A stretch of 62,846 nucleotides of DNA, the filler included, from Collodictyon triciliatum (taxonomy: Eukaryota), in the NCBI GenBank assembly GCA_043381765.1. It is 6 parts of 6 records of this genome, joined end to end, with 100 filler letters (N's around TTAATTAATTAA, not from the genome) between each part and the next. Parts side by side here need not be neighbours in the genome. Positions count along the whole stretch, not along the records: positions 24,051 to 35,964 come from JBHJMP010002279.1; 5 more parts are not named here. One strand, written 5' to 3'. This document shows positions 4,231 through 60,414 of the stretch, in pieces; positions within the stretch are counted from its first letter, which is position 1, and every line of letters begins with the position of its first letter. The position numbers were made by a program, and so were the translations under genes. The notes under the pieces are model-generated. The model saw only the letters and a list, made by a program, of their open reading frames with translations, was not told the origin of the DNA and did not search any database.

Positions 4231-4569
4231 TGGAAATTATGATGCAGAGGGCTGCAGGGGCTATACTTTGCGTATGATACCGCGCCCTAGCTCAGTATGC
4301 AATGGCACAGCATATTACAGCATACGTTTTATTGCTGCGGTGTCTGAGTAGAAAGGTAAATCTTGTGTGCGCGAGCGATGCATGGAACGGAATCGAGGCC
4401 AACGACCATGTCCATAATTGGAATGACCGACTCATTTGCTTCTCGGCATCTATTGCGCAACGCATCACAACGCATCACAACAAAGCACAAAGCACAAAGC
4501 ACAAAGCACAAAGCACAAAGCCAACGCACGGCCTGACATTGACACTCACCTACAGACACGCAGGTGCCA

Positions 4570-7500
4570 ATGCGCGAGAGGCATCCTCCACAACTGCGCT
4601 TCCTGGTGGTGAACCCCGACTGCGAAACCGCACCGCACACCGGAGAGACAAACGCACACCCAGAAAAAGAAAAAGAGAAAGAGAACGACAAAGAGAAAGA
4701 GAACGACAAAGACAAAGACAAAGACAAAGACAAAGACAAAGACAAAGACAAAGACAAAGACAAAGACAAAGACAAAGACAAAGACAAAGACAAAGACAAA
4801 GACAATGACAGAGGCCAAGACAGAGACGGGGCTGCGGGGCCGATCGAGCTGACGCCGAGCGTGTCTGTGTTCCACCGGCGGATGGTGCTTGTGTGCGACA
4901 CGGAGGTGCACATGCTGCTGGACTCGCGGCGGACGCTGCTTGCGGGGCTGGTGGGGCGGCGTGCGGCCGGGGCGGTTGTGCGGGGCATGGCGGGGCGGGC
5001 CGGGGCTGCTGTGGCCGTGGCGCACGCGGTCTGCGTGCCGGGCTTCTTCCTGCTTGCGGCGGGGGCGTCTGCGTCTGCGTCTGCGTCTGTGGGGGCGGCG
5101 CTCTTCGCGGGGGCGGCCTCGGTCGGGACGCTGCACATGCTTGTCATGGCCCTCCTTCTGCAGACGGACCTTGTGCGCATGGCCCTCGCAAACTTCGAGA
5201 ACTCGTATCTCATCGCAAACGTGGCGGCCTCCGTCCTCTGCCTCCTCGACATGCTCGGCTGGCCCCTCTACTCCCTCGTCGCCCTCCCCTACTTCCTCCT
5301 CGCCTGCCTCAACGTCTTCCTCATTGACGCATTTCCCGTCAGCTTCTCCCGCTTCGAGGCCCGCTTCCTCCGCATCCGCGACGCAAAGAGGTCTGCCAGC
5401 GCCCTGGCCGAGTACCGCCCCGACACGCCCACGGACCGCAGCCTGAGTCATGACCATGACCATGACCATGACAATCACAGTGACAGTCGCAATGACAACA
5501 GCAATGACAATCGCAACCAGAATGACCGCAACTACAGCCCAAACCATGACCATGACGAAGCCACCCCCGACCCCCAACCCCACACGCCCCACAGACGCTC
5601 AAACGCCCGCTCGCTGCGCCCGCCATCTTCCGCCTCCTTCGTCCGCCCCCGCCACCCGTCCGCCCCTTCCCACCGCGCCTCGGCCGCGGCTCTGGACTCC
5701 GCCTCCCGCCCCCGCCCCTCCGACAGAGCCCCGCACCTCATCGACTTCTCCTGGATGTCCGACCCAAACTACGTGCGGATGATATCCCGCAATCTCTACC
5801 TCATGCTCAGCGGCACGAGGGCGTCGCAATGGTGGGCAAGGCTCCTATGGCCCCTCCAAATCGTCAGGCTCCACGGTTTATTCACCATAACCTGTCTGCT
5901 CTTGTCCACTCTTGTCCCCATACTGGTCTACTTTTTTGTTCAATTCAAACTGCTGGACGGAATGCATGTGAGAAGCTTCGTCATATTCCGCAGTGTTCTT
6001 ACCACTGATGCTATTTGTCGCTCTTGCTGTATAAACATGGGCTTCTTCAACTTTCGCCGCTTGCTCTCTACCTTTGTCTACCCTCTCAAAATGCATTGTA
6101 TCAGCCGTCGTTCGATGAGAATCCCTCTTGTCCTGGGCTGGGAGAAGATGCTACAGACAAAAGTATCAAAAGTCGAAAACCACCCGGTCCTCTCTAGGAA
6201 TCACATTCAACAAATCAATCGCCACCAGAGCACAGATCACTCAGCCAGCCACTATGCAAACTACTCTTTAAATGAAGTCAAAGAATCAAAAAGGCATCGC
6301 TCCATCATCGATTATGCAGCAAACATGCGAAAGAGTGTATCAAACGGCTCTCGCAAGATATTTCCTCAGATGTCAGAGAATGTACCACATCTCTTTTCAT
6401 CCCGTATGTCGCTATCCTCCAATCGTATGATGACCTCATCAACTATATCTATTATTCCACCTGCCAGTGACTTTGTTGCTTCTGCGCCTCAACCCCCAGA
6501 TGCAGATATTCAAGATTGTGAGCGACACTATTCAAAAACTAAAACACTGGAGACAGTATCCACCCCAACAATAGAAAATTTCCCCGAATCATCTGTTCTG
6601 CCTACATCAGTCCCTCTTAGCGTAAGCCATCAAGATATTCAAACACCTCAAGTTACCATCAGAAGGGCCACTGTTGCTCTTCGAAGTAATCCATCCATCA
6701 GCAACACAACTCCAAAAAAGACTGCTCTATCATCTAGTTCCAGTACGGGGTTTGAACAGCAATTGTCCATATATGAAAATATGGCACAGGAACAAGCTGG
6801 ACCGAGTGGGTCTTCACCAGCAAAACTCGGCAACTCATCACCAAAGACGCTTGGCAGGTTGTCGGTTTTGCAAGTTCCAACTCAAAGTCAGAGCCAAAGT
6901 CCGAATCAGGTTCAGGTTCAGATTCAGGTTCGAAGTCAAAATCATGTGCAGTCTCAAGTGCAGTCTCCGCCTCAACCTCAAAATCTTCTCGGAGTTTTCC
7001 ACTCGCAGAGATTCGAGTCTGTGAGTTCATATGGCACATCCATGGGGCGCCCGTCTTACTGGAGGCCCTTTGCGTTTGAGGAGCACACCTTCGACCGGCA
7101 TCACCGAGTAAACGACCTTCCCGCTCCAGACGAGAATGTGCGGTATTGCCTTGTATCCACCCCAATGAACGACCGCACGACGATAGACTACACAGAGACA
7201 TTTGGCGATTTGCTCTTTGGCATCCATGGGAAAAAATATTTACCAATTTTATCGAAATATATATTTGGGGCGTTTCAAGGATTTTGGGCCCTTGGTCTTT
7301 TGTTTACTCTTGTTCTCTTTACGTTTGACTCACCCATCACGAATATTATCGGTTACATCAGTGTATTAATAGGGATAGCACACCAGCTATGTTTCCTGGC
7401 GCTCTACTCTGTGAACGGGGTGGTCATGACTTTGAAGTCATTCGAGACAATTTTTCTTTTCATCAATTCAGTGTGTTGCTGTTTGGCGTTGGGTGAGTAT

Positions 7501-8190
7501 CTCCAATGGAAAAGCCTGTCAGTTTGGTTGGGGGTACCCTTGATATTTCTCAGTCTTATTTCGGGGACCCTGATTGACGCGCAGCCGATATCATTCCAGA
7601 GGTTCTCTGCCGTCCTTCGAAAGATCTATTCAATGCACTACTGCGAGGAACGCGATGCCTTGGAAGGGCTCCCAGAGAGCATAGAGGATGTAATTGAGTT
7701 GGTTCGGAGCCATGTGATGAAGGTGCGCAAAAGGCAGAAGGCAGCATGGGAGCGACGCTGCAAGGAGGATGAGAAGGGTATCGGTGAGAAGAGGAAGGAG
7801 GAGGAGGATGCGGAGGGAGAAGAGAGACGCCCGGCAGAAGCAAAGCGAGGCATGCGAGAGAAGCTGCACGAAAAGTGGATGCTTCTTTCTCTGTATGCAC
7901 ACTCGACATGGATTAGTCTGACCATCGGGCTGATTATGATGGTTACCCTGTTCGTGTTGGTCGAGTGCGACAGCCTGCTGCATTCGAGGCAGCGGACGAT
8001 ATCCCTGACGCTGGCCTCGTGGACGCTGGACGCCATCATCCGCATCACGCTGATGAACATGATTATCATTTACCTGAGGCGCGTGGTAGCCAATGTGCTG
8101 CACCCTTTCCGCACAGCAACCATCGAACGCCGCGTAATCAAAATGCCCCTCGTGACCGGGCTGTGCGACCTGGACGACAACCTTGTCTGA
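4570..8190 (+). CDS. Single-exon multi-pass membrane protein of unknown family with an internally duplicated domain (paralog 1)
   Basis: Uninterrupted ORF of about 1200 aa. First ATG is at 4570; the true start may be M at ~4882. Two homologous hydrophobic halves: FENSYL..DAFPVSF..RIPLV and FETIFL..DAQPISF..KMPLV. Confidence 0.85.
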   Translation: MRERHPPQLRFLVVNPDCETAPHTGETNAHPEKEKEKENDKEKENDKDKDKDKDKDKDKDKDKDKDKDKDKDKDKDKDNDRGQDRDGAAGPIELTPSVSVFHRRMVLVCDTEVHMLLDSRRTLLAGLVGRRAAGAVVRGMAGRAGAAVAVAHAVCVPGFFLLAAGASASASASVGAALFAGAASVGTLHMLVMALLLQTDLVRMALANFENSYLIANVAASVLCLLDMLGWPLYSLVALPYFLLACLNVFLIDAFPVSFSRFEARFLRIRDAKRSASALAEYRPDTPTDRSLSHDHDHDHDNHSDSRNDNSNDNRNQNDRNYSPNHDHDEATPDPQPHTPHRRSNARSLRPPSSASFVRPRHPSAPSHRASAAALDSASRPRPSDRAPHLIDFSWMSDPNYVRMISRNLYLMLSGTRASQWWARLLWPLQIVRLHGLFTITCLLLSTLVPILVYFFVQFKLLDGMHVRSFVIFRSVLTTDAICRSCCINMGFFNFRRLLSTFVYPLKMHCISRRSMRIPLVLGWEKMLQTKVSKVENHPVLSRNHIQQINRHQSTDHSASHYANYSLNEVKESKRHRSIIDYAANMRKSVSNGSRKIFPQMSENVPHLFSSRMSLSSNRMMTSSTISIIPPASDFVASAPQPPDADIQDCERHYSKTKTLETVSTPTIENFPESSVLPTSVPLSVSHQDIQTPQVTIRRATVALRSNPSISNTTPKKTALSSSSSTGFEQQLSIYENMAQEQAGPSGSSPAKLGNSSPKTLGRLSVLQVPTQSQSQSPNQVQVQIQVRSQNHVQSQVQSPPQPQNLLGVFHSQRFESVSSYGTSMGRPSYWRPFAFEEHTFDRHHRVNDLPAPDENVRYCLVSTPMNDRTTIDYTETFGDLLFGIHGKKYLPILSKYIFGAFQGFWALGLLFTLVLFTFDSPITNIIGYISVLIGIAHQLCFLALYSVNGVVMTLKSFETIFLFINSVCCCLALGEYLQWKSLSVWLGVPLIFLSLISGTLIDAQPISFQRFSAVLRKIYSMHYCEERDALEGLPESIEDVIELVRSHVMKVRKRQKAAWERRCKEDEKGIGEKRKEEEDAEGEERRPAEAKRGMREKLHEKWMLLSLYAHSTWISLTIGLIMMVTLFVLVECDSLLHSRQRTISLTLASWTLDAIIRITLMNMIIIYLRRVVANVLHPFRTATIERRVIKMPLVTGLCDLDDNLV
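4705..4805 (+). repeat. (GACAAA)n hexamer repeat (poly-DK if translated on +)
   Basis: About 16 perfect copies. Confidence 0.95.
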
Positions 8191-11923: not shown

Positions 11924-12023
11924 NNNNNNNNNNNNNNNNNNNNNNNNNNNNNNNNNNNNNNNNNNNNTTAATTAATTAANNNNNNNNNNNNNNNNNNNNN
12001 NNNNNNNNNNNNNNNNNNNNNNN
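11924..12023. other. Artificial contig spacer N44-TTAATTAATTAA-N44
   Basis: 100-bp spacer with stop codons in all six frames. Identical spacers lie at 23951-24050, 35965-36064, 47979-48078 and 59968-60067. Confidence 0.97.
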
Positions 12024-16032: not shown

Positions 16033-18519
16033 TCAGACTTTCAACGACTGCACAATCGAAGGAACCAAGGGGACTCTTAAATACGAACCATCAAAAGCTG
16101 CCGTCTTCAGAGGTCTTATTGTCATAAAAAATGCTCTCTTTGTGTAAATTATCCCATTATTCAACAGAATCGTCTTCATCAATCCTAAGTTTGACCATGT
16201 ACCCAAAGGTGTACTTATTTCGATCAAGTGATTTCCTTCATACGTGTTGGCTGATATTAAACACAAAAAAAGAAAAGAGAATGCATAACCTATATGTAAG
16301 ATCAAAGAGGTCGTAGAAGATGCTATCTTTCGTTCAATAGAGCTCCTCTTCATCACTTGCTTAAATAGACTGCCCTCCTTCGTGCACTTGGACGCCAAAT
16401 CTTTGACATGATTTCGAAGTAACTTTGATAACTCTGTCGCTCCGTATGCATCGCACACAAGCATGCTTGCAATCCCCAATATGACCGCGTCTTCCATCGT
16501 CATTTGAATACCATGCTCTTTCCAACGTCGCAAAGTCTTGTCCAGTTCGATGGATGAAGGCTTGAAAGATATGGGATATGCATCTATAAACACCCCTGCT
16601 ACACACGAAAAAACAAATCCCATCAACCCGGCATAGGACATGGGGCTGCTCCATCCATATACAGAAATAGCCAACCCAAAAAGTAGGATTGTGTTGAACA
16701 ACAGGAATGATGACTCTACTGTATACATCGAGTGCATAATACACGCAGTAGGGAAAAGTAGAATGACGCAGACCATTCTCACTATGGCCAGTATTCCAAA
16801 AACTTTCAGATAAATCTCAAAAGAGGTTTTTTCATCCGCCATTAGAAAGAAGAAGAAAAAGATACCCAGGAACCAGGTTGGGATGGTTATGATGCCAAGT
16901 GTGACAAACATTTTGCGAACTCTTCTCCATATACCTTTGCCAAAGATGGTCTCTCCCAGCGTTTTGTTTGAATCCAGATATTTCCCATGGTAACCATCGC
17001 TCATGACGACAATCAACCGCGATTCCGCAGTGAGATGTACACTCGTTGGATCACTTTGTTTGCCCACTTGGGGTATGGATTTAAAATCGTGTTGATTGTT
17101 ACAAGGAGGTTCGTTTTTGATTTGGGTGACTATTATGACATCATTATCCACGTGGTCATTTTTCTTGGCTCCCGTATTCTCCTCATCTTTTACTTCCAAA
17201 ACTTTAACATCAGCATTATCAGATGATTTGTGTAATTGAACCATATCATTTTCTTTTAAGACTCTCTTTGCATATGATTCTATTGAATCGCCACATACTA
17301 ATATTTCCTCTTGTTTCCTTGCAGATTCCAACATTTCTATTCGTAGATATTCAAGAATCTGGCACCATTGTTGTGTCAGAGGTATCCTAAGGTATCGTTG
17401 AGCAGTCGTTGACATTGCCAAAGGATTGAATAGGGACCGGTAAAGCCTTTTTGAGGAAAAGTACAGGATGTTGATACAACTGATTCGGCACATCTCTTCA
17501 TTCGTCCAGCTGAATAAAAGTACTTGTATTGTAGAGACCCGGGCGTCTGGTATCAACCTTGCCTGAACAAGACCATAAACAAGAAATTGACAAACAATAA
17601 TCATGAAGATCGACAAGTGCGAATGAAATTTTATGTCCTTTACGTAAATCATAACACGGGCAAACAGCTCTTTAGAAAAGTTTACGTGCGGGAATGTTTT
17701 TAATACTTGCTTCCGAATTTGGTCTAAATCAATGTGATTTACCATCTTTGGGACAGGCGAACTTTCCAGTAGCATGTCATTGTTTATCCAGGCGTCTCTT
17801 AGGCTCTTTAACATCACTGGATTGGTTGATTCTTGAACAGAAATACTTTGATTCGTGCTCGTCAACGATGAGGACGTGGATTTCAAGCTGTTGAACCCTT
17901 TGTCACTTTTCATCATTTTCAGATAGCTGGAAACCCCTTTTTCAAACTTTGAGAAGCTGAATGGAAAGGCGTCCATGAATATCAGATTGATATGAGAAAA
18001 GAAGATAAAGACGAGGCAATGGCCTGCTCTGCCGTCCCAGTTTGTAATACTTCCGATAGAATACATCTGAGTTATCAGATTAATCACAAGAAAGTTATTT
18101 TCAAAGCAAGATGCTGCGAATAGGATGATATCTGGCTGGAATGGCTGTACGAAAAATGCGTAGTGCACAATTCCAATACAACAAATGATTTGCACGAGCA
18201 GTGCATACTCTTTGGATGGAAAGAGGAGCAATCCAAACCATAGAAAAACACCAACAGTACAAAATATTATTATCAGTATAGAAAAAGGTGGTTGATAAAC
18301 TCGTGTGAGTATCTTGCGCCATTTGACTCCAAATATTCTCTCTGCAATAGACGCTTTAACGTCGAAAACAAAGGCATCATCACTACGCACAAAAGCATAC
18401 GTCCTTTTCAAGGTCGATTCTCGAAAATGCTCCAATATTCTCAAAGGCTCACAGCTTGACCCATTTTCCAACATATGGTTTTCGTGAGGCTGATCACGCC
18501 CGAACCGATCGGTTGCCAT
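16033..18519 (-). CDS. Single-exon duplicated-domain membrane protein (paralog 2)
   Basis: 828 aa from the ATG at 18519. Halves are FENNFL..DAFPFSF..RIPLT and VESSFL..DAYPISF..RVPLV. Confidence 0.9.
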   Translation of the reverse strand: MATDRFGRDQPHENHMLENGSSCEPLRILEHFRESTLKRTYAFVRSDDAFVFDVKASIAERIFGVKWRKILTRVYQPPFSILIIIFCTVGVFLWFGLLLFPSKEYALLVQIICCIGIVHYAFFVQPFQPDIILFAASCFENNFLVINLITQMYSIGSITNWDGRAGHCLVFIFFSHINLIFMDAFPFSFSKFEKGVSSYLKMMKSDKGFNSLKSTSSSLTSTNQSISVQESTNPVMLKSLRDAWINNDMLLESSPVPKMVNHIDLDQIRKQVLKTFPHVNFSKELFARVMIYVKDIKFHSHLSIFMIIVCQFLVYGLVQARLIPDARVSTIQVLLFSWTNEEMCRISCINILYFSSKRLYRSLFNPLAMSTTAQRYLRIPLTQQWCQILEYLRIEMLESARKQEEILVCGDSIESYAKRVLKENDMVQLHKSSDNADVKVLEVKDEENTGAKKNDHVDNDVIIVTQIKNEPPCNNQHDFKSIPQVGKQSDPTSVHLTAESRLIVVMSDGYHGKYLDSNKTLGETIFGKGIWRRVRKMFVTLGIITIPTWFLGIFFFFFLMADEKTSFEIYLKVFGILAIVRMVCVILLFPTACIMHSMYTVESSFLLFNTILLFGLAISVYGWSSPMSYAGLMGFVFSCVAGVFIDAYPISFKPSSIELDKTLRRWKEHGIQMTMEDAVILGIASMLVCDAYGATELSKLLRNHVKDLASKCTKEGSLFKQVMKRSSIERKIASSTTSLILHIGYAFSFLFLCLISANTYEGNHLIEISTPLGTWSNLGLMKTILLNNGIIYTKRAFFMTIRPLKTAAFDGSYLRVPLVPSIVQSLKV

Positions 18520-19419
18520 ATGCAAAAGCAGAGCTGTAAATATTTGCAGTATCTCAGATACTGTCCTAAAATACAAATGGATGGATAGTAAATAATGAAG
18601 AATGAAAACATGAAATACAATATTAAGAATAGATTTTTAAGTAAAAGTTGAATAAAATAAGATGAAAATACGTATCGAGGAGAGAACGGAGCCTGTTAAC
18701 AGCAAAGGTATATCTTCCTCTAGTAAGTTTTTTTCCCCCCTCTTTTCTTTTAACTTACGACATTTCTTGGTCATATATCGTGCGTCAGGAATATTCTTTT
18801 CTTTTCCTTCTAACGTTCTCTTTACGAACGCCTCTGTTGTTGTCATTCTGCCCACGCCAGCGACAGGGAACTGGATCATTGTGACTGGTTTGGTGCGCAG
18901 CGAACTTTTTCTGCTTCGAAAATAAGCAAAATGTAACTGAATGTGGAATTGAACATAATTTAAAAATAAGACAAATTTGGACGCATACTTCACGTTCTTG
19001 GAAAATCTTGTTCAAGGGAGCAGTCGACGGACGCAGCTCTGCCAAGATAAGGACAAGCAATGGTGCGGTGACCGCACAACACTGGGTAGGGTTTCGGCCG
19101 CGCTATCGGCTCACTTTTGTTTCATCTCGTCTCTTTTTTTCTGTTTTTTTTTTCTGTTTTCTGTATTCTGTTTTTGTTTTTTTTTGTTTTTTGTTTTTTG
19201 TTTTTTGTTTTTTGTTTTTTGTTTTTTGTTTTTTGTTTTTTGTTTTTTGTTTTTTTGTTGAGGGCTCTTGGTGCGCATCTATATTGGCTTTGGGTCTCCT
19301 TACCGCATAAAAAAGCATGTTAATTTTAGTTGTCGCACAAACAGCGGTCGCGGCCACCTGCGATAAGAGTGTCAGCGGATGGGTCAATACCACAAAAGCA
19401 CTAATTACGATAAAAAAAA

Positions 19420-21237: not shown

Positions 21238-21949
21238 CCTTATTATTGGCATATATGATTAAGTTGAATATACCTATCGCACTCAATATATCCTGTAGCT
21301 CATTGATATAAACTATCTGTATAAAAATTCTTTTAGATGTTTACCAGGGTCAATTCTGCGTCGGACATATTGTGAATAAGAACCCCAACTCCCATAATTC
21401 AAATGTACTCTTCGAAGAGTTTAAGAACGTCTATAAATTCTTCTCTAATAAATGCAAATTCTCCTATCTATACAAATAGAACGAAATATTTTAAAAATTA
21501 ACAATCACATGTTTTGATTTAATTGAGGCTCAAATGACTTAAAAAAAAAACTTTCAAGACGAACTCGCATGTTTGTCCTAATAGTTGTGCAATTTATATG
21601 CTTGAATGAAGTGCAAAGCATCATATATATTTGACCTTATTAAAGGATTGATTTATTACATGCTCTTATATGATAAACCCGAAACAAGTGGAGAAAAAAT
21701 AGCGCACCACGAGAAATGAGCCGATTCAATGTATTATTAGTATTAATTCAGAGAACCCAAAGCTAGGAGTGATTTTGTATTTACCCCAGCCTAAACTCGT
21801 GCACCGATAGATGTTCTGGCCTGTGAATTCGTGTACGTTTTATAGGAAAGTCTACCATATTATTTTCCCTTCTATTAATTAATTTATTATTTGATTCAGT
21901 CAACATCCATTTGTAACATCATACAGGCAGATAATACCTTTAACAAGGT

Positions 21950-22024
21950 GGGCACTTTGAATCGAATAAAGGAAAAAAAAACCTTCAACAAGGTGGGCAC
22001 TTTGAATCGAATAAGGGAAAAAAA
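21950..22024 (+). mobile_element. Two tandem ultra-short retroposed tails (21950-21980 and 21995-22024)
   Basis: GGGCACTTTGAATCGAATAARGG-A(n) occurs twice, flanked and separated by three copies of ACCTTYAACAAGGT (21936, 21981, 22025). Confidence 0.85.
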
Positions 22025-22382
22025 ACCTTCAACAAGGTAGGAATTACCGCAACTCTTTTCCTTTACTAATGATTATTTGAGACCTTGACAAACCTCTGTG
22101 CTCTATACGCATCTCTTGAGGAAAACAATTTGATATTACATCTCTCTCTATCTATAAATAAAAAAATAACAATTCATAAACAAAACAAAATCATGAGTAT
22201 TAATGTTGCTTATCAGTCCATTTATTCTTTCCATCACAATTGTGTTTGGACGATGAGATGAACTTCTTGATGTTTAAATCCAATAATGCCTTGTAAGAGA
22301 ATACTATTTTGTACTAGCTTCAGTAACAAAAATAAAATAAAAAATAGAAAGCTACGCGAGGGAAAGACCAACATAAAAAACC

Positions 22383-22406
22383 TTTGAATCGAATAACGGA
22401 AAAAAA
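22383..22406 (+). mobile_element. Ultra-short retroposed tail
   Basis: TTTGAATCGAATAACGG-A7 between 13-bp direct repeats AACATAAAAAACC / AACAAAAAAAACC. Confidence 0.75.
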
Positions 22407-22450
22407 AACAAAAAAAACCATTATAATTATAAAAAATATCACTGGGGACT

Positions 22451-23950: not shown

Positions 23951-24919
23951 NNNNNNNNNNNNNNNNNNNNNNNNNNNNNNNNNNNNNNNNNNNNTTAATT
24001 AATTAANNNNNNNNNNNNNNNNNNNNNNNNNNNNNNNNNNNNNNNNNNNNTTTGTTTTTTTGTTTTTTTGTTTTTTTGTTTTTTTGTTTTTTTTGTTTTT
24101 TGTTTCTTGTTTCTTGTTTCTTGTTTGTCATCTGAAAAGAAACATGCTTATCGATGGATGAAATACAAATCTTTCTAATTGAAAAAATTCAAACAAAGTG
24201 AGAAAAAGAAATAGATGGGGACAAGAAAAAAATGAATAGAGAGGGAGAAAAGAATGAAAGCATGTCAACGACGCGGTTGCATCCGGCCTCTGTTCTTGCC
24301 CAGTTCAAAGCGGTGGATGAAAGGAGTTGTAAGTACAATGTGACGAGTGCGCCAAAGAACTTACCAACTGAAATTCTGCTGCAGTGGGTGGGACATAAGG
24401 CTTCGGCTCCTCCATTCCGATCCAGTGCCGCACTCTGCTTCGCAACTCCTCAAACGACTGATTGGCCACGTAGGGATCTTCTCGTGTCGAGCGGTTTGAT
24501 CGCGTAGAGCTGCGGCGACTGCCACTCGAGACAGAAGGCGACTGCATCTGTGCGTCTGTATTGAAACGTCTTCGTGTTATCAACTGTGTGTAAAAGCGCG
24601 GCTTATCTTTGCCTTTCGTGATCTGCCTTGGTGGCTTTGTGATTGTGGACTATCAGATCACTCGCTGCGCAGGCATCTACGCAACACAAAACGACTTGCA
24701 CCGTTACAAATAGAATGGTATGCTAATATGATATTAGGTATATAAATCTTAAAGTCAATTTCAGAATGTATGTAGACTTAAGAGGTAAAATAAGATTGCA
24801 TGACACTTGTTAATATTGATTCCACATATGTATTATGATATTAATCAATATCCATCTCCTGCCTATTCCGCTTGTGTTTGATCAATCCATCACAAATCAA
24901 AACAGATACAAAACCTGAA

Positions 24920-31446: not shown

Positions 31447-31470
31447 TTCCCTCTCATTTGATTCAAAGTA
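31447..31470 (-). mobile_element. Degenerate ultra-short retroposed tail
   Basis: TTCCCTCTCATTTGATTCAAAGTA between GCTACTAGTTTTACATATT and GCTATTATTTTACATATT. Confidence 0.6.
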
Positions 31471-33831: not shown

Positions 33832-35449
33832 TTGTAAGGTCTGTGCATGGATAATGTGGCATATATAAAGTAAAAGCAAACCAAAAATCAAAGGAACAAA
33901 ATACAGAAAAGTATCATTTTTTTAAAAAAACTTTTTTTTAAGATATATCAAATAAACGAACCCCAACTATGGCAATATGGCTGGGTATTTGGTTTGTTTC
34001 ATATGTAAAATCATCACTCTGAGATAACATTTGGAAATCACTCGGTGCCTCCTCATTTGTCCAATCTACTTCAGTGATTCTGCATTGATATCTGATGTTG
34101 ATTACAATTTGACTTGAGGTGCGCTCTGAAGTTGGTATGGCTTTCTCAACTCTGTCATGGACTGGGCCCAATGGAACTTTAATTTCCTGAGCAAAAGATA
34201 AACAAAAGAACCAAAAACGTATATAAGCAAATTGGGTGAGGTGAGTGAGATATATAAATGGAATATTTTAGAATTTTTCTGCCTTGTGATATTATATTAT
34301 TTTCATTCGTATATGCTCATGCTTTGACTTACTTTGGTGTCAGAAAAGTCCATATTCCCAGGCTCCCCAAACTGAATTAAAAAGTCTCGTAATAATTCCA
34401 GAGTGAAGAAGGTACAACAACCAATTGGTTCGTATCGCTTTGGATCTGACTTTGTGATGATGATTTTAATATGCTTACCTTATGCAGGAATTCCTAGTTG
34501 GAAGCATTATACATTTTCCAGAGACCCACAAATATATGAAAAATGAAATGATAGTATTTGGGTGTGTATCTATATATAACCCTCACGTTTTCGTAAAGAA
34601 TAAGCCTCAAAATCGAGTTTGGATGTGCTAACTGGAAAATGAAGGGGCCGGTCCAAGACACGCTCCTTGATTCTTTCTTTACCTCCGTCTGATTCTCAGT
34701 GTTGCCGACAACCATGGTGCAATAGTAGGATCCAATATCTGTGGTGCGTTATGAGTGGAAGTTTAAAGAAAGGCTCGACCATGTCCTTTGAAATCTCATC
34801 TAAATCTCCAGATGTGATATTAAATCCTCTTTTCTGCAATCAGCCATGAGGTTCACGAACACCGGATTTTCATTGTGATTATATGGGAGCTTTTTCATAA
34901 GCATATTTTGACGGGAATAAAATCCTGACTTCATTCTTACCTTCAGGGAGAGCCTCTACATCGATAGCTTTGCAGACACGATTGGGCCGTTGCCAAGAAT
35001 AGTCATTATGATGGATTTCAGCGTTTTCTTTCTTTCTTTGTTGATTTTTTTAAAAAAAAAAATAAATATAACAGAATTACCTTCAATTGACAGCGACGCG
35101 CTGAGCCGGTTCTGCAGAACCATAATACTGAATCAGACCCAGTCAAATACACAAAAGACTTTTTTTTTTTTCTTCCTTTATTCGATTCAAAGACAAAAGA
35201 CTCATTATTGAGGTTGGTTGCAAAGAAAATACCAGAAAAGACATGCCAGGCTGAGCAACAAACCTTGTCGAGCCCGTACAGGCTCCCCTTTCCAAAGAGG
35301 CGGCCGTATTCTGCAAATCTGTCGAGTCGTTGATGAGTTTCCCTTGGGCGGGGAACAATCACTTGCGGCTTCACAACTTCGTAACTATGGGGCGCCGATT
35401 TGTTCCTGCGATGGCCGAACGCACGACTGGCAGCACCCGCCGGCTCCAT
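31535..35449 (-). CDS. Multi-C2-domain protein (possibly Munc13-like); multi-exon, 3' end runs into the N gap
   Basis: Three C2-like segments: SWTGPFIFQL..LRLILYE; ARGF..SPYFTLRIG..IDFYNE..DDYIGSI..GWFSI..GEAYISF; and IEARNI..VKTSAVKKSTSPVFGDIFSFPV..LEIVVWDKD. Confidence 0.8.
33734..33831. repeat. (CAA)n intronic microsatellite
   Basis: About 32 copies inside an intron of the C2 gene. Confidence 0.95.
35161..35192 (-). mobile_element. Ultra-short retroposed tail in an intron
   Basis: T11-CTTCCTTTATTCGATTCAAAG flanked by a perfect 10-bp TSD, ACAAAAGACT (35151-35160 and 35193-35202). Confidence 0.9.
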
Positions 35450-35910: not shown

Positions 35911-36414
35911 CGTGAATCTGGTCATCGTTTAGATGTGAGTCAAGGGTGTAATCGTTTAAGACTCNNNNNNNNNNNNNNNNNNNNNNNNNNNNNNNNNNNN
36001 NNNNNNNNTTAATTAATTAANNNNNNNNNNNNNNNNNNNNNNNNNNNNNNNNNNNNNNNNNNNNGAATGATAATACAGTCTTACATGAAAACAGTCTAGT
36101 CTTCGTACCTTGATATTGAATGACTAGTATGCTTTACTCTGGAATTCTTATCATTTTTTAAGGTGATGATTTTTTGTTCGCAGCATAATGTCATAATAAA
36201 GACACCAAAGTGAAATTCCAAAGATTCAAATGAACTTCCAGGTCGTTAAAAAGTAAAAACCTATTGTTAATTCTGCCTGCTGTGTCAAAAACCCTCTCTA
36301 GTGATGATATACCTTCGCACTCTTTCTTTTCAAATATTTTATCTGCCCCCTCTTTCTGTTCTCTATCAAGATACTTGGCATAGCCACCGTTACTGAAGCT
36401 GGACAGTTTGTCGC

Positions 36415-47978: not shown

Positions 47979-48277
47979 NNNNNNNNNNNNNNNNNNNNNN
48001 NNNNNNNNNNNNNNNNNNNNNNTTAATTAATTAANNNNNNNNNNNNNNNNNNNNNNNNNNNNNNNNNNNNNNNNNNNNAATAAAAAAACATGTTCCCTTT
48101 TTTTTCGCCTTTTTTTCTTTCATTTTTTTTTTTTTTTTTTTTTACTGTTGCTTTCTGTTCGACCCGGGCAACGAGCAGACGAACGTTTCCTTCTCTATCA
48201 CGGGCCTGGACGAGTGGCTATCATATCTTTCCCGTCCCGCTGTTTGTTTCTATCTTTCCTTGTCGGCAACTCAGGCT

Positions 48278-48330
48278 TTTTTTTTTCCTTTATTCGATTC
48301 AAAGTGTAGCGAGGTTATGCCATACAAAGG
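48278..48330 (-). mobile_element. 53-bp 5'-truncated retroposed tail
   Basis: T9-CCTTTATTCGATTCAAAGTGTAGCGAGGTTATGCCATACAAAGG with a perfect TSD, AACTCAGGCT (48268-48277 and 48331-48340). Confidence 0.92.
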
Positions 48331-54770: not shown

Positions 54771-54834
54771 CAAGGTTATTCTGGATGAACAAAGTTACCT
54801 CTCGTTTGTACTGATTTAAATATCGTCAATGCTT

Positions 54835-54856
54835 CTTTGAAGCGAATAAAGGAAAA
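54835..54856 (+). mobile_element. Ultra-short retroposed tail
   Basis: CTTTGAAGCGAATAAAGGAAAA between 17-bp repeats AAATATYGTCAATGCTT (54818-54834 and 54857-54873). Confidence 0.85.
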
Positions 54857-54921
54857 AAATATTGTCAATGCTTTTATCAGGGTTTCACCGCAGACAAAAT
54901 TAAAATATGTAACTGAAAGTT

Positions 54922-55157
54922 TTTTTCCCCTTTATTCGATTCAAAGCGCAGCGAGATTATGCCATTAAAAGAAGTGAGACGGGAGCGCATGGGAGAGAGC
55001 AAACGCGATAAGAGAAGACACTACCGTGGAGAGGCGAGCGCTGGAAATAAATCAGTGATGGCGAGTTGGTCAGGCGGGCATCCCAACTGGTTGATTGGTT
55101 GCATGGGTAGCAGTGGTTGGATATGCTGTGGGAGATATCGCACGACACATTCCCATC
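54922..55157 (-). mobile_element. 236-bp 5'-truncated non-LTR retroelement 3' end (longest family copy)
   Basis: It has the same 3' terminus and aligns with the 53-bp copy. Perfect 14-bp TSD TGTAACTGAAAGTT (54908-54921 and 55158-55171). Confidence 0.92.
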
Positions 55158-56179: not shown

Positions 56180-58001
56180 ATGGCCTCTGTCAAAATAAAC
56201 ATCCGCACCGCTGGTTACGATCCGAATCAGCAGTTGCTCGTTGAGATACCAGGGGCAGAAACAGTGGGGGAGCTGAAGAATAGGGTATTATATAGTTCAT
56301 GATCCAAGCATTCACAACCTTAAAACATGAAAGAAATGACATAAACTCATAAACGAGTTTGAACAGGCCCAATGCACAAATTGTGGTATTATCACCTATA
56401 TATTATAGAGGTGATAATACCACACAAATATTATTTTTAATTTATTTATTTATTTTTTAAAAAAAAAGAAAACATAACATGAGATCATTTCCTTAACATT
56501 TTTTTTTCGATCTACGCTAATTAAAAAAAAAAAAAAAAGAAGCAAAGATGGCGTAAATGTTCCTTTGGAGCGATAAAATAAGGATTTAGAGGAAATGTCG
56601 GTCTATGACACCCCAATGCGCTTTAACTCCCTTCTTCCCATAAAAACCGCAGATTACGCAATCACATCCATCCCATCCTATCCCATCACAACAGCGTCTC
56701 ATCTATGCTGGTGCTATTCTTCGAGATGAACAAAAAATAGCGGACGTTTTTTATCAGGTTTGGGGGTTTCACCTATGATCGTATGCTATTGTAGTCCGGA
56801 GTTCTTCCTTGAGTAAATATATCATTTAGGGCTGTCATGGAATATGTTTCACATAAAGAACGAGAATTGATCCGTTATCTTTCTATTGCTACAGCTATAT
56901 TTTTATTTTTGAAAACAGCGAGTAAAAAAGAATTTCGTTTTACTACCACAGAATCAACCTGATTTCAGTTATGTGGCCCACCTAGTCATATCTAACTCAA
57001 CGTCAGATCCACAGACCTCCTCTAGTAGGGCAACTCAAAACCAAACAGAAACAAACCAAAGCTTCCCTAATCAACTCCAATATCCAGGCCCGTACTACAA
57101 TCATCTATATGCAAATTACCCTCCGTTTGCTTTCAATTCTCCGCTTGCATTTACGTAAATATTACATCATTATGTTGCAGTAAATCAACCATTTTTGAAA
57201 CAAATTTCGTCTACTTTATTTCTCAGTTTAAGCAGACCTTTTTTTCTTTTAATTTTCTTGTTAAAAAATCGACAATCTAGAAAACAATTTACCATAGCCC
57301 AAATGCAAATATCAGCGCTTTATTTTGCATCATGTATGGTCTAAGGTGTTCTCAACTATTAGGGACTCATACTATGAAGGGCAAGGGGTCTCACATAACC
57401 CTTACCATCAACACGGAGGCCACTACTTTCAACCATATAATGGATTCACTCAAACACACCCACAAATATCACCACAGCAACAACAACAACAACAACAACA
57501 ACCACAAATACATCAACCACAAATACCTCAACAAGTACAACAACCCCAAATACCTCAACAAAATCCCCAGGTTTTTGTCCGACATTTTCAGTTCGATTTA
57601 AGCGTCGCTTTTCGTTATCTAATGTTTGCCCTAATTCTCTATTCTGCTATACCTGGAGGAGAGTCTATGGTCAGTACGTCTCAAATATACCTACTGGCCT
57701 TGCTTTGGTTATTGTGAGTCCCCCATTAAATTCTCTTTATATCACCTTGTATTTCAATCCTTACTGCTAATGTCTTAACGGCCACTCTCATTACCGTCAC
57801 TCATATAATTATTTTGAACTCTAATTGAGAAAGGCTTAATCTTGTAACTAATGCATGATTCAATATGAAACAATCTTACTTTTTTTTCCCCTCCGCTCGT
57901 TTCAAAGACGAAATAATCTAACATAGTGACATATATCTCTACTTAGATTTCAAATGGGTTTTTTTCAATTCAACGTCCAAGTTAGAGGATTCAGACAATA
58001 G
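56180..58001 (+). CDS. HERP/HERPUD-like protein (N-terminal ubiquitin-like domain, C-terminal TM segments); 3' end uncertain
   Basis: TVGELKNR|ITQSHPSHPIPSQQRLIYAGAILRDEQKIADVF..VAHLV, then a Q/Y-rich linker and hydrophobic FRYLMFALILY..FQMGFF. Confidence 0.8.
56382..56424. mobile_element. 43-bp palindromic MITE-like insert in an intron
   Basis: Perfect 16-bp inverted repeat TGTGGTATTATCACCT / AGGTGATAATACCACA, flanked by the direct repeat CAAAT. Confidence 0.65.
57880..57907 (-). mobile_element. Degenerate ultra-short retroposed tail in an intron
   Basis: T8-CCCCTCCGCTCGTTTCAAAG between ATGAAACAATCTTAC and ACGAAATAATCTAAC. Confidence 0.65.
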
Positions 58002-59967: not shown

Positions 59968-60414
59968 NNNNNNNNNNNNNNNNNNNNNNNNNNNNNNNNN
60001 NNNNNNNNNNNTTAATTAATTAANNNNNNNNNNNNNNNNNNNNNNNNNNNNNNNNNNNNNNNNNNNNTTTTTTTTTTTCCCTCAACTGGGTAGAAATAGT
60101 TTAATCCTTTCCTTTTCTTTCTTAAAACATAACTTCGAATTTTGTTACTAGGATTCACCAGTTCTTCACTTTTTTTTTTTAACCCGGTTTTTTTTCTTTC
60201 TTTCTCTTTCTCTTTCCTTTCGTTTCTTTTTTTCTTTTTTTTTCTTTTTTTTTTTTCTTTTTCTTTCCTTTCTTTTCTTTTTTTCTTTTTTCTTCTTTTT
60301 TTTTTTCTTCTTTTTTTTTTCCGGGTTTTGCTTGAACAAAAGGAAAGGGTTTGGAGGTCACCCAAACCCGAACGGCAAAAGACAACAAGAAAAGAAAAAA
60401 AAAAAAGACATTTA

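Follow-up and report, generated by a model that had tools for sequence, protein, structure and literature searches.

A sharp 5' truncation hotspot 18 nucleotides from the 3' end of an ordinary L1-type LINE in Collodictyon triciliatum

Why do several short, A-tailed insertions in a single stretch of DNA begin at the same base? We address this question in 62,846 nt of the Collodictyon triciliatum genome (assembly GCA_043381765.1), hereafter the window. The window consists of separate contigs chained via 100-nt N spacers at intervals of ~12 kb (11924-12023, 23951-24050, 35965-36064, 47979-48078, and 59968-60067); neighborhood across the spacers is meaningless. An earlier note observed that short copies share a 5' boundary at CTTTG, at the base of a small stem-loop, and proposed that they may form a discrete unit, either a hairpin RNA acting as a micro-SINE or the product of a preferred reverse transcriptase (RT) termination or cleavage site. 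We conclude that the boundary is a real and sharp truncation hotspot of an ordinary L1-type LINE; a cause for the stop is proposed below by inference. Throughout, positions are numbered from the C of CTTTG as 0, so that the body finishes with GG at +17 and upstream bases take negative numbers.

The copy that raises the question lies on the minus strand. Its 18-nt body (35175-35192) starts at the hotspot C and matches the last 18 nt of the 3' UTR of an L1 family, here family A; the same 18-mer also ends RT-coding copies. The body is followed by an A-rich tail, AAG plus A11 (35161-35174), and the insertion is bounded by an exact 10-bp TSD (upstream copy 35193-35202, downstream copy 35151-35160). 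As the earlier note had it, 2 other stubs also start exactly at this C: 54835-54856 on the plus strand (TSDs 54818-54834 and 54857-54873, 16/17, 1 mismatch) and 57880-57907 on the minus strand, a diverged copy with a 4-G run and A8 (TSDs 57908-57922 and 57865-57879, 12/15). The fourth cited copy, 22382-22407 on the plus strand, does share the C at 22382 with its TSD, a low-complexity 12-bp repeat (22371-22382 and 22408-22419, 11/12), and starts at 22382 or 22383, that is, at 0 or +1. The TSDs of all 4 cited copies were read by eye.

Five more copies are present in the window. Two form a plus-strand array at 21936-22038, organized as TSD-stub-TSD-stub-TSD, in which both stubs start at -3 after an identical untemplated GG; the array is therefore probably one insertion that was duplicated afterwards, and the shared GG and -3 junction suggest duplication via recombination or slippage between TSDs. 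The other 3 are on the minus strand: a copy truncated at -26, with a 44-nt body, A10, and a 10-bp TSD (48277-48330); an old stub, diverged in sequence, that begins near -1 and has a degenerate TSD, read by eye (31449-31469); and a longer 5'-truncated copy that retains the end of ORF2 and the whole 3' UTR (54920-55155; blastn, 237 nt at 89% to locus L171). Across 54835-54946, the plus-strand stub and this long minus-strand copy stand tail to tail with ~50 bp between them.

Longer relatives point to the source of the stubs. The exact 18-mer has 1,830 genomic copies, against 0 for its reversed control (genome of 75.4 Mb in 14,576 contigs), and a DNA search with the upstream 100 nt retrieved longer copies sharing up to ~680 nt. 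These encode a protein C-terminus with a C-x2-C-x8-H-x4-C knuckle, and the ORF2 stop lies ~78 nt upstream of position 0. One locus, L154, combines an RT fragment, the CCHC knuckle, and the family-A 3' end; its RT fragment has 144 genome matches, and several such loci end in the same 18-mer. A 747-aa stretch of locus L201 carries Exo_endo_phos (PF03372, E 1.9e-16) and RVT_1 (PF00078, E 8.8e-28) in one ORF; the link of L201 to family A is through this RT, which shares 78% identity with the L154 fragment. The knuckle matches zf-RVT (PF13966) at E 4.5e-4 and 21.3 bits, under the 27.5 cut-off. Since longer copies encode the knuckle and RT, and RT loci end in the same 18-mer, we identify the stubs from sequence as the last 18 nt of the ~96-nt 3' UTR of a LINE, plus an A-tail; the LINE is classed as L1-type by its domains and by named database matches at 28-36% identity, which include "LINE-1 reverse transcriptase-like" and "Transposon TX1."

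The stubs are dead-on-arrival TPRT products of this LINE. Their 3' end is fixed and carries an A-tail, while their 5' starts vary from +9 to -125 and beyond; TSDs of at least 10 bp flank 119/173 copies chosen by a 3' anchor, with a mode of 16-17 bp; and T precedes the TSD in 87/114, corresponding to a first nick at T/A. Of 21 sequence runs listed, all of contigs, 4 were compared and show that the element is present; contigs cannot show RNA ends.

How sharp is the boundary once copies are chosen independently of it? Copies were selected by their 3' end only, with the last 9 nt plus tail as anchor, which avoids selection by CTTTG. The 2 anchors had 1,447 and 478 genomic matches (controls, 9 and 2), and we took the 100 matches listed for the first and 70 of the 100 listed for the second, all of them on the first contigs. 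Dropping those that came within 45-55 nt of an N or the end of a locus, and adding exact-anchor copies from the flanks, gave a total of 173; copies shorter than 9 nt or with mutated anchors are invisible to this design, and long copies, often at contig ends, are under-sampled. The leftmost match fell at 0 in 43 copies, at -1 in 22, at +1 to +9 in 54, at -2 to -4 in 15, and further upstream in 39; bodies of 22 nt or less account for 134/173. Expressed as stop rates, 43/119 copies reaching position 0 end there (0.36) and 22/76 end at -1 (0.29), versus 97/2144 (0.045) per base elsewhere (binomial P against this background, 2e-27 and 2e-12). The hazard climbs over the U run (0.046, 0.09, 0.09) before reaching 0.36 at the next base. 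A second stop appears at -18 (7/23, P 5e-5, uncorrected for 40 positions).

Exact genome counts of the sequence reaching from a given position to the 3' end give the same profile: 2,730 copies from +5, 2,028 from +1, 1,830 from 0, 1,177 from -1, 679 from -3, and 467 from -9. Corrected for substitutions with 41 long copies, the stop rate is ~0.05 per base at +4 to +1, ~0.39 at 0, and 0.04 at -4 to -9; ~1,100 of the 1,830 exact copies end at 0 to -2. The shared boundary is thus a sharp, real hotspot and not random truncation. The histogram of 5' endpoints that the earlier note called for has a peak at 0/-1 in place of a smooth decay, and the note's alternative of a preferred RT termination or cleavage site was right in kind. 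Its other suggestion, that the minimal class may be a discrete unit, holds insofar as the endpoints are nonrandom and fails on discreteness: 54/173 copies start inside the proposed stem and loop, and another 54 start further upstream than the peak.

Such a peak could also arise from microhomology between CTTTG and T-rich target ends, an explanation that the earlier note had also raised. We compared junctions with a null in which targets were swapped among copies, using 105 junctions without inserted bases, including loci chosen by other patterns. Over all of these short copies, overlaps of 3 or more bases are enriched (16 vs 5.9 expected, P 0.0004) and junctions with no overlap are underrepresented (46 vs 58.6). 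At the peak, however, 31 of the 54 junctions without insertions share no base, and the overlap is one base in 16, two in 1, and three or more in 6; with insertions included (n = 67), 31 are blunt, 17 have 1-2 shared bases, 6 have at least 3, and 13 have 1-4 extra bases, which are of mixed composition. Among unambiguous blunt junctions, 26/39 lie at 0/-1. As the blunt-only histogram keeps the peak, microhomology is refuted as its cause; it accounts for a minority of events, and we consider it barely credible that it produced the peak.

The bases next to the junction gave 2 further observations. T is overrepresented immediately before the peak (67 of the first 100 matches listed, by eye). An origin as untemplated A on the cDNA was considered and rejected: every class, and a second family described below, has TSDs ending in T, so the excess is read as a second-nick preference. 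Separately, copies starting within +1 to +9 (L016, L036, L049, L057, L076) frequently carry untemplated top-strand A's, with 8/15 insertions being A1-3 or CA, unlike the peak copies.

The number of copies ending at 0 to -2 could also be taken as the output of a micro-SINE that amplifies autonomously as a discrete 18-nt hairpin RNA produced from master copies. SINEs often have 3' ends in common with LINEs, which counts in favor of this idea. Against it, 108/173 copies lie off the peak; the ends are ragged (-1, 0, +1, +2) and the lengths form a continuum up to RT-coding copies; tail variants are common to short and long copies (chi-square P 0.19); and none of 89 peak copies has a 5' flank in common with another (best 14/21). 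We found no SINE head or promoter, as the TSD adjoins the 18-nt LINE tip directly, and an Rfam search of the 3' end region (L163, 300-600) gave 0 matches at E<=5. The headless structure, ragged ends, length continuum, and unshared flanks largely refute the idea; the stubs are not a discrete micro-SINE, and amplification from master copies is extremely unlikely.

The secondary structure of the stub does not rescue the hairpin RNA. A 5-bp stem with a 7-nt loop (0 to +16) can be drawn, as the earlier note did, yet it is unfavorable at +1.3 kcal/mol. The minimum-energy state is unfolded for the consensus unit and for the copies at 35161, 54835, and 22382; only the 57880 variant folds (-1.9). Stem pair probability is 0.22-0.29 for the unit alone and 0.01 in a 56-nt context. 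A stem-keeping subfamily resembling the 57880 variant was sought with a degenerate pattern and rejected, the exact variant being 1 of 40 matches; this pattern admitted pair-keeping changes only and is not a covariation test. Covariation across 36 long copies amounts to 1 two-sided change, a score equaled in 88-133/500 shuffles, at the low power of copies that are 89% identical (4/39 distinct rows, with three indel-shifted ends and one deletion, were excluded from the alignment, and L001 was added).

On the same 36 copies, RNAalifold picks another hairpin, upstream of the boundary, at -18 to -3 (consensus -1.76 kcal/mol). It can be extended to -21 to 0, and its 3' foot then coincides with the peak. 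In a 156-nt fold, its inner pairs have probabilities of 0.75-0.97, and C0 and A-1 of 0.55-0.58; in a 56-nt fold, a competing helix cuts C0/A-1 pairing to 0.21. Common polymorphisms at -5, -3, -1, and 0 all preserve the pairing, as A>G and C>T changes opposite U or G do by default. The hairpin is weak (-2.0 to -2.8 kcal/mol). Its 2 two-sided and 35 one-sided changes are equaled in 107-234/500 shuffles, the 3' UTR as a whole shows no folding advantage over shuffled sequence (z -0.23 and -0.40), and a hairpin in the cDNA is not predicted.

A second L1-like family, family B, serves as a control within the same genome. Its ORF2 C-terminus is 34-38% identical to that of family A, and its 3' anchor has 929 exact matches (control, 3). 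Here, too, the copies are short: 81/92 examined match for 50 nt or less. Lengths were defined by TSDs, and peaks at 18 nt and 26 nt proved to be artefacts of a subfamily variant compared with one reference. Among 63 copies with TSDs, lengths cluster at 21-24 nt (10), 31-35 nt (16), and 42-43 nt (10), and 18-19 nt is represented by only 2. In both sequence variants, the largest cluster coincides with the 3' foot of a hairpin predicted upstream of it, and the other 2 lie off any hairpin 3' foot. Extreme shortness is therefore common to both families, and stop positions depend on the template. The family-B clusters (L294-L373 and others) are spaced ~10 nt apart, which might reflect the helical period.

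We favor a reading in which reverse transcription aborts at the 3' foot of the weak predicted hairpin just upstream of the boundary, like Alu truncation hotspots, and hold it at about even confidence. On this account, ORF2p would nick at a T/A step and prime ~8-9 nt into the A-tail, and the other strand would be nicked ~16-17 bp away; the geometry of both steps is displayed by the insertions, the order of events being taken from human L1 work. RT then copies the A/U-rich last 18 nt and, in roughly half of the events that reach this point, stops after copying C(0) or A(-1), as the endpoint counts display. The cDNA is joined to the top strand blunt or with 1-4 extra bases, as seen at the junctions. 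The stop itself would reflect a pause of RT at the 3' foot of the 3'-UTR hairpin at -21 to 0 (core -18 to -3), perhaps held by ORF2p or another protein, and the already nicked top strand would allow an early switch to second-strand synthesis, capturing the cDNA. The relevant structure would thus lie upstream of the boundary and not inside the stub.

Human precedents are consistent with such a pause. In Alu, truncation peaks sit immediately 3' of SRP9/14 sites and at the same places as hairpins (PMC4666360). Human ORF2p holds a stem-loop adjoining 15 or more nt of single-stranded A and requires 20-25 A (PMC10830416); the ~26 nt between the priming site and the upstream hairpin are near this length. 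The same source reports that mixed-sequence 25-nt tails are unused in vitro, so the length match is an analogy only. Several results stand against the hairpin pause: the -18 stop falls on the 5' base, not the 3' foot, of the upstream hairpin, the energy is weak, fold and covariation do not exceed shuffles, the class with 5 G's in its tail has 1/10 at the peak, and the family-B clusters at 21-24 and 42-43 nt fall elsewhere. Furthermore, the upstream hairpin was chosen post hoc, after the peak was known.

Three other explanations compete for the same stop. The template itself may be short: L1 RNA would be reduced, by cleavage or by 5'-to-3' trimming, to a polyadenylated fragment of ~26 nt that ORF2p or the terminal hairpin protects, and RT would run off the end of this fragment and jump to the top strand, which amounts to the processed RNA of the earlier note minus autonomous amplification. 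The stops at 0/-1 and -18 fall at the 5' bases of predicted small hairpins 18 nt apart, 44/67 peak junctions are blunt or carry 1-4 extra bases as run-off and jumping predict, and 26 nt is near the ORF2p footprint (PMC10830416). Set against this are the instability of the terminal hairpin, the copies that start inside it, the lack of dependence on tail length, the different family-B lengths, and the mixed bases inserted at the peak; we regard a short template as possible, though on the doubtful side. Slightly more tentative is the full scenario, in which L1 RNA is processed to ~26-nt polyadenylated 3' fragments, perhaps in 18-nt steps, that are bound by ORF2p and inserted instead of the full RNA. 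If true, this would be a host restriction route, turning most retrotransposition events into harmless 25-bp scars that record the RNA footprint of ORF2p.

Alternatively, sequence without structure might suffice, the RNA:cDNA hybrid being weakest after the A-tail and U run, so that the cDNA is released just past the U3 tract. The rising hazard across the U run and the weakness of all predicted structures fit this view, whereas family B stops where the context is C-rich or begins with G and has no U tract, and the -18 stop follows a GC-rich stretch; we judge it unlikely. A length ruler, under which a constant 26-27 nt of synthesis on any sequence would bring on the second nick or strand transfer, would predict an effect of tail length. 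Start position does not correlate with it (rho -0.01, P 0.91, a comparison blunted by later slippage). The peak fractions by tail class are 36/102 for GG, 19/35 for GGG, 9/26 for GGGG, and 1/10 for 5 G's (chi-square P 0.052). In the 5-G class, starts tend to be later (5/10 at >0), as a ruler would have it. Extra G's after +17, up to 5 in total, replace A's, leaving the G plus A length near constant at 8.6-9.4 nt across classes and confounding position with distance. The differing family-B stops, with only 2/63 at 18-19 nt, and the absent tail-length correlation argue against a fixed ruler, and the near-constant tail weakens that argument; a ruler remains very unlikely in our estimation. As a separate observation, G-rich tails seem commoner in diverged copies.

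In most respects, the element behaves like L1 elsewhere. Its insertions resemble human L1 TPRT insertions as described in PMC7617806: an ORF2 with APE and RT and, here as a candidate, a C-terminal CCHC knuckle, an A-tail, TSDs of 12-21 bp, a T/A nick, and 5' truncation, which that source explains by an early switch to the second strand. Unlike the human insertions described there, most Collodictyon stubs are no longer than 22 nt, the stop is resolved to 1-2 bases, tails are only ~5-14 nt, and the target has only 1-2 A after T. PMC4666360 describes Alu 5' truncation peaks near 45 and 170 bp that are likewise nonrandom, made by L1 ORF2p, and poor in microhomology, and attributes them to pausing at stem-loops or protein-bound sites. 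There, truncation affects ~16% of Alu copies and is spread over broad zones of a SINE; here, in contrast, the peak is the main class, is 2 bases wide, and lies in the RNA of the LINE itself, 18 nt from its end. Anolis CR1 stubs of <50 bp (PMC5389967) are similarly abundant very short LINE stubs that ordinary searches miss, yet CR1 belongs to another clade and its lengths are described as declining smoothly without a single-base hotspot. As with stringent-type LINE/SINE 3' stem-loops and ORF2p-bound stem-loops (PMC10830416 and PMC5135761), a small 3' hairpin may be held by RT ~20-25 nt from priming; unlike those, neither hairpin here passes a covariation test, and a SINE head is absent. A literature search, mostly of open papers, turned up no published LINE with truncation concentrated on a single base ~18 nt from its 3' end.

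The element class is thus ordinary, and structure-linked truncation peaks are already in print for Alu; new here are counts of the boundary across the genome, a null model for microhomology, a control from a second family, and tests of structure. The cause of LINE 5' truncation is a long-open question that is usually approached via broad length distributions. Family A provides a natural collection of >1,000 events whose stops fall within a span of 2-3 bases, at a distance of 18 nt from the end of the RNA, beside a sister family in the same genome that stops elsewhere. On so short a template, pausing, RNA trimming, and early second-strand switching become separable by a few point mutants. The same process leaves thousands of 25-50 bp insertions and 16-bp duplications that are easily missed in repeat annotation.

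Some minor observations touch on these insertions or on the window. Loci L016 (minus strand, near index 2353), L020, and L156 have GG(G)A(A) followed by a T-run and no A-tail, as if the tail were inverted. Near 126-200 on the plus strand, locus L173 has an insert of 51 nt followed by A9 and flanked by a 15-bp TSD. The insert is related to neither family and, by eye, starts at the base of a 7-bp inverted repeat; it possibly represents a third family. Finally, the window contains 2 long open frames, at 4543-8187 (plus strand) and 16036-18636 (minus strand), which appear by eye to encode paralogous multi-pass membrane proteins with similar internal and C-terminal motifs.
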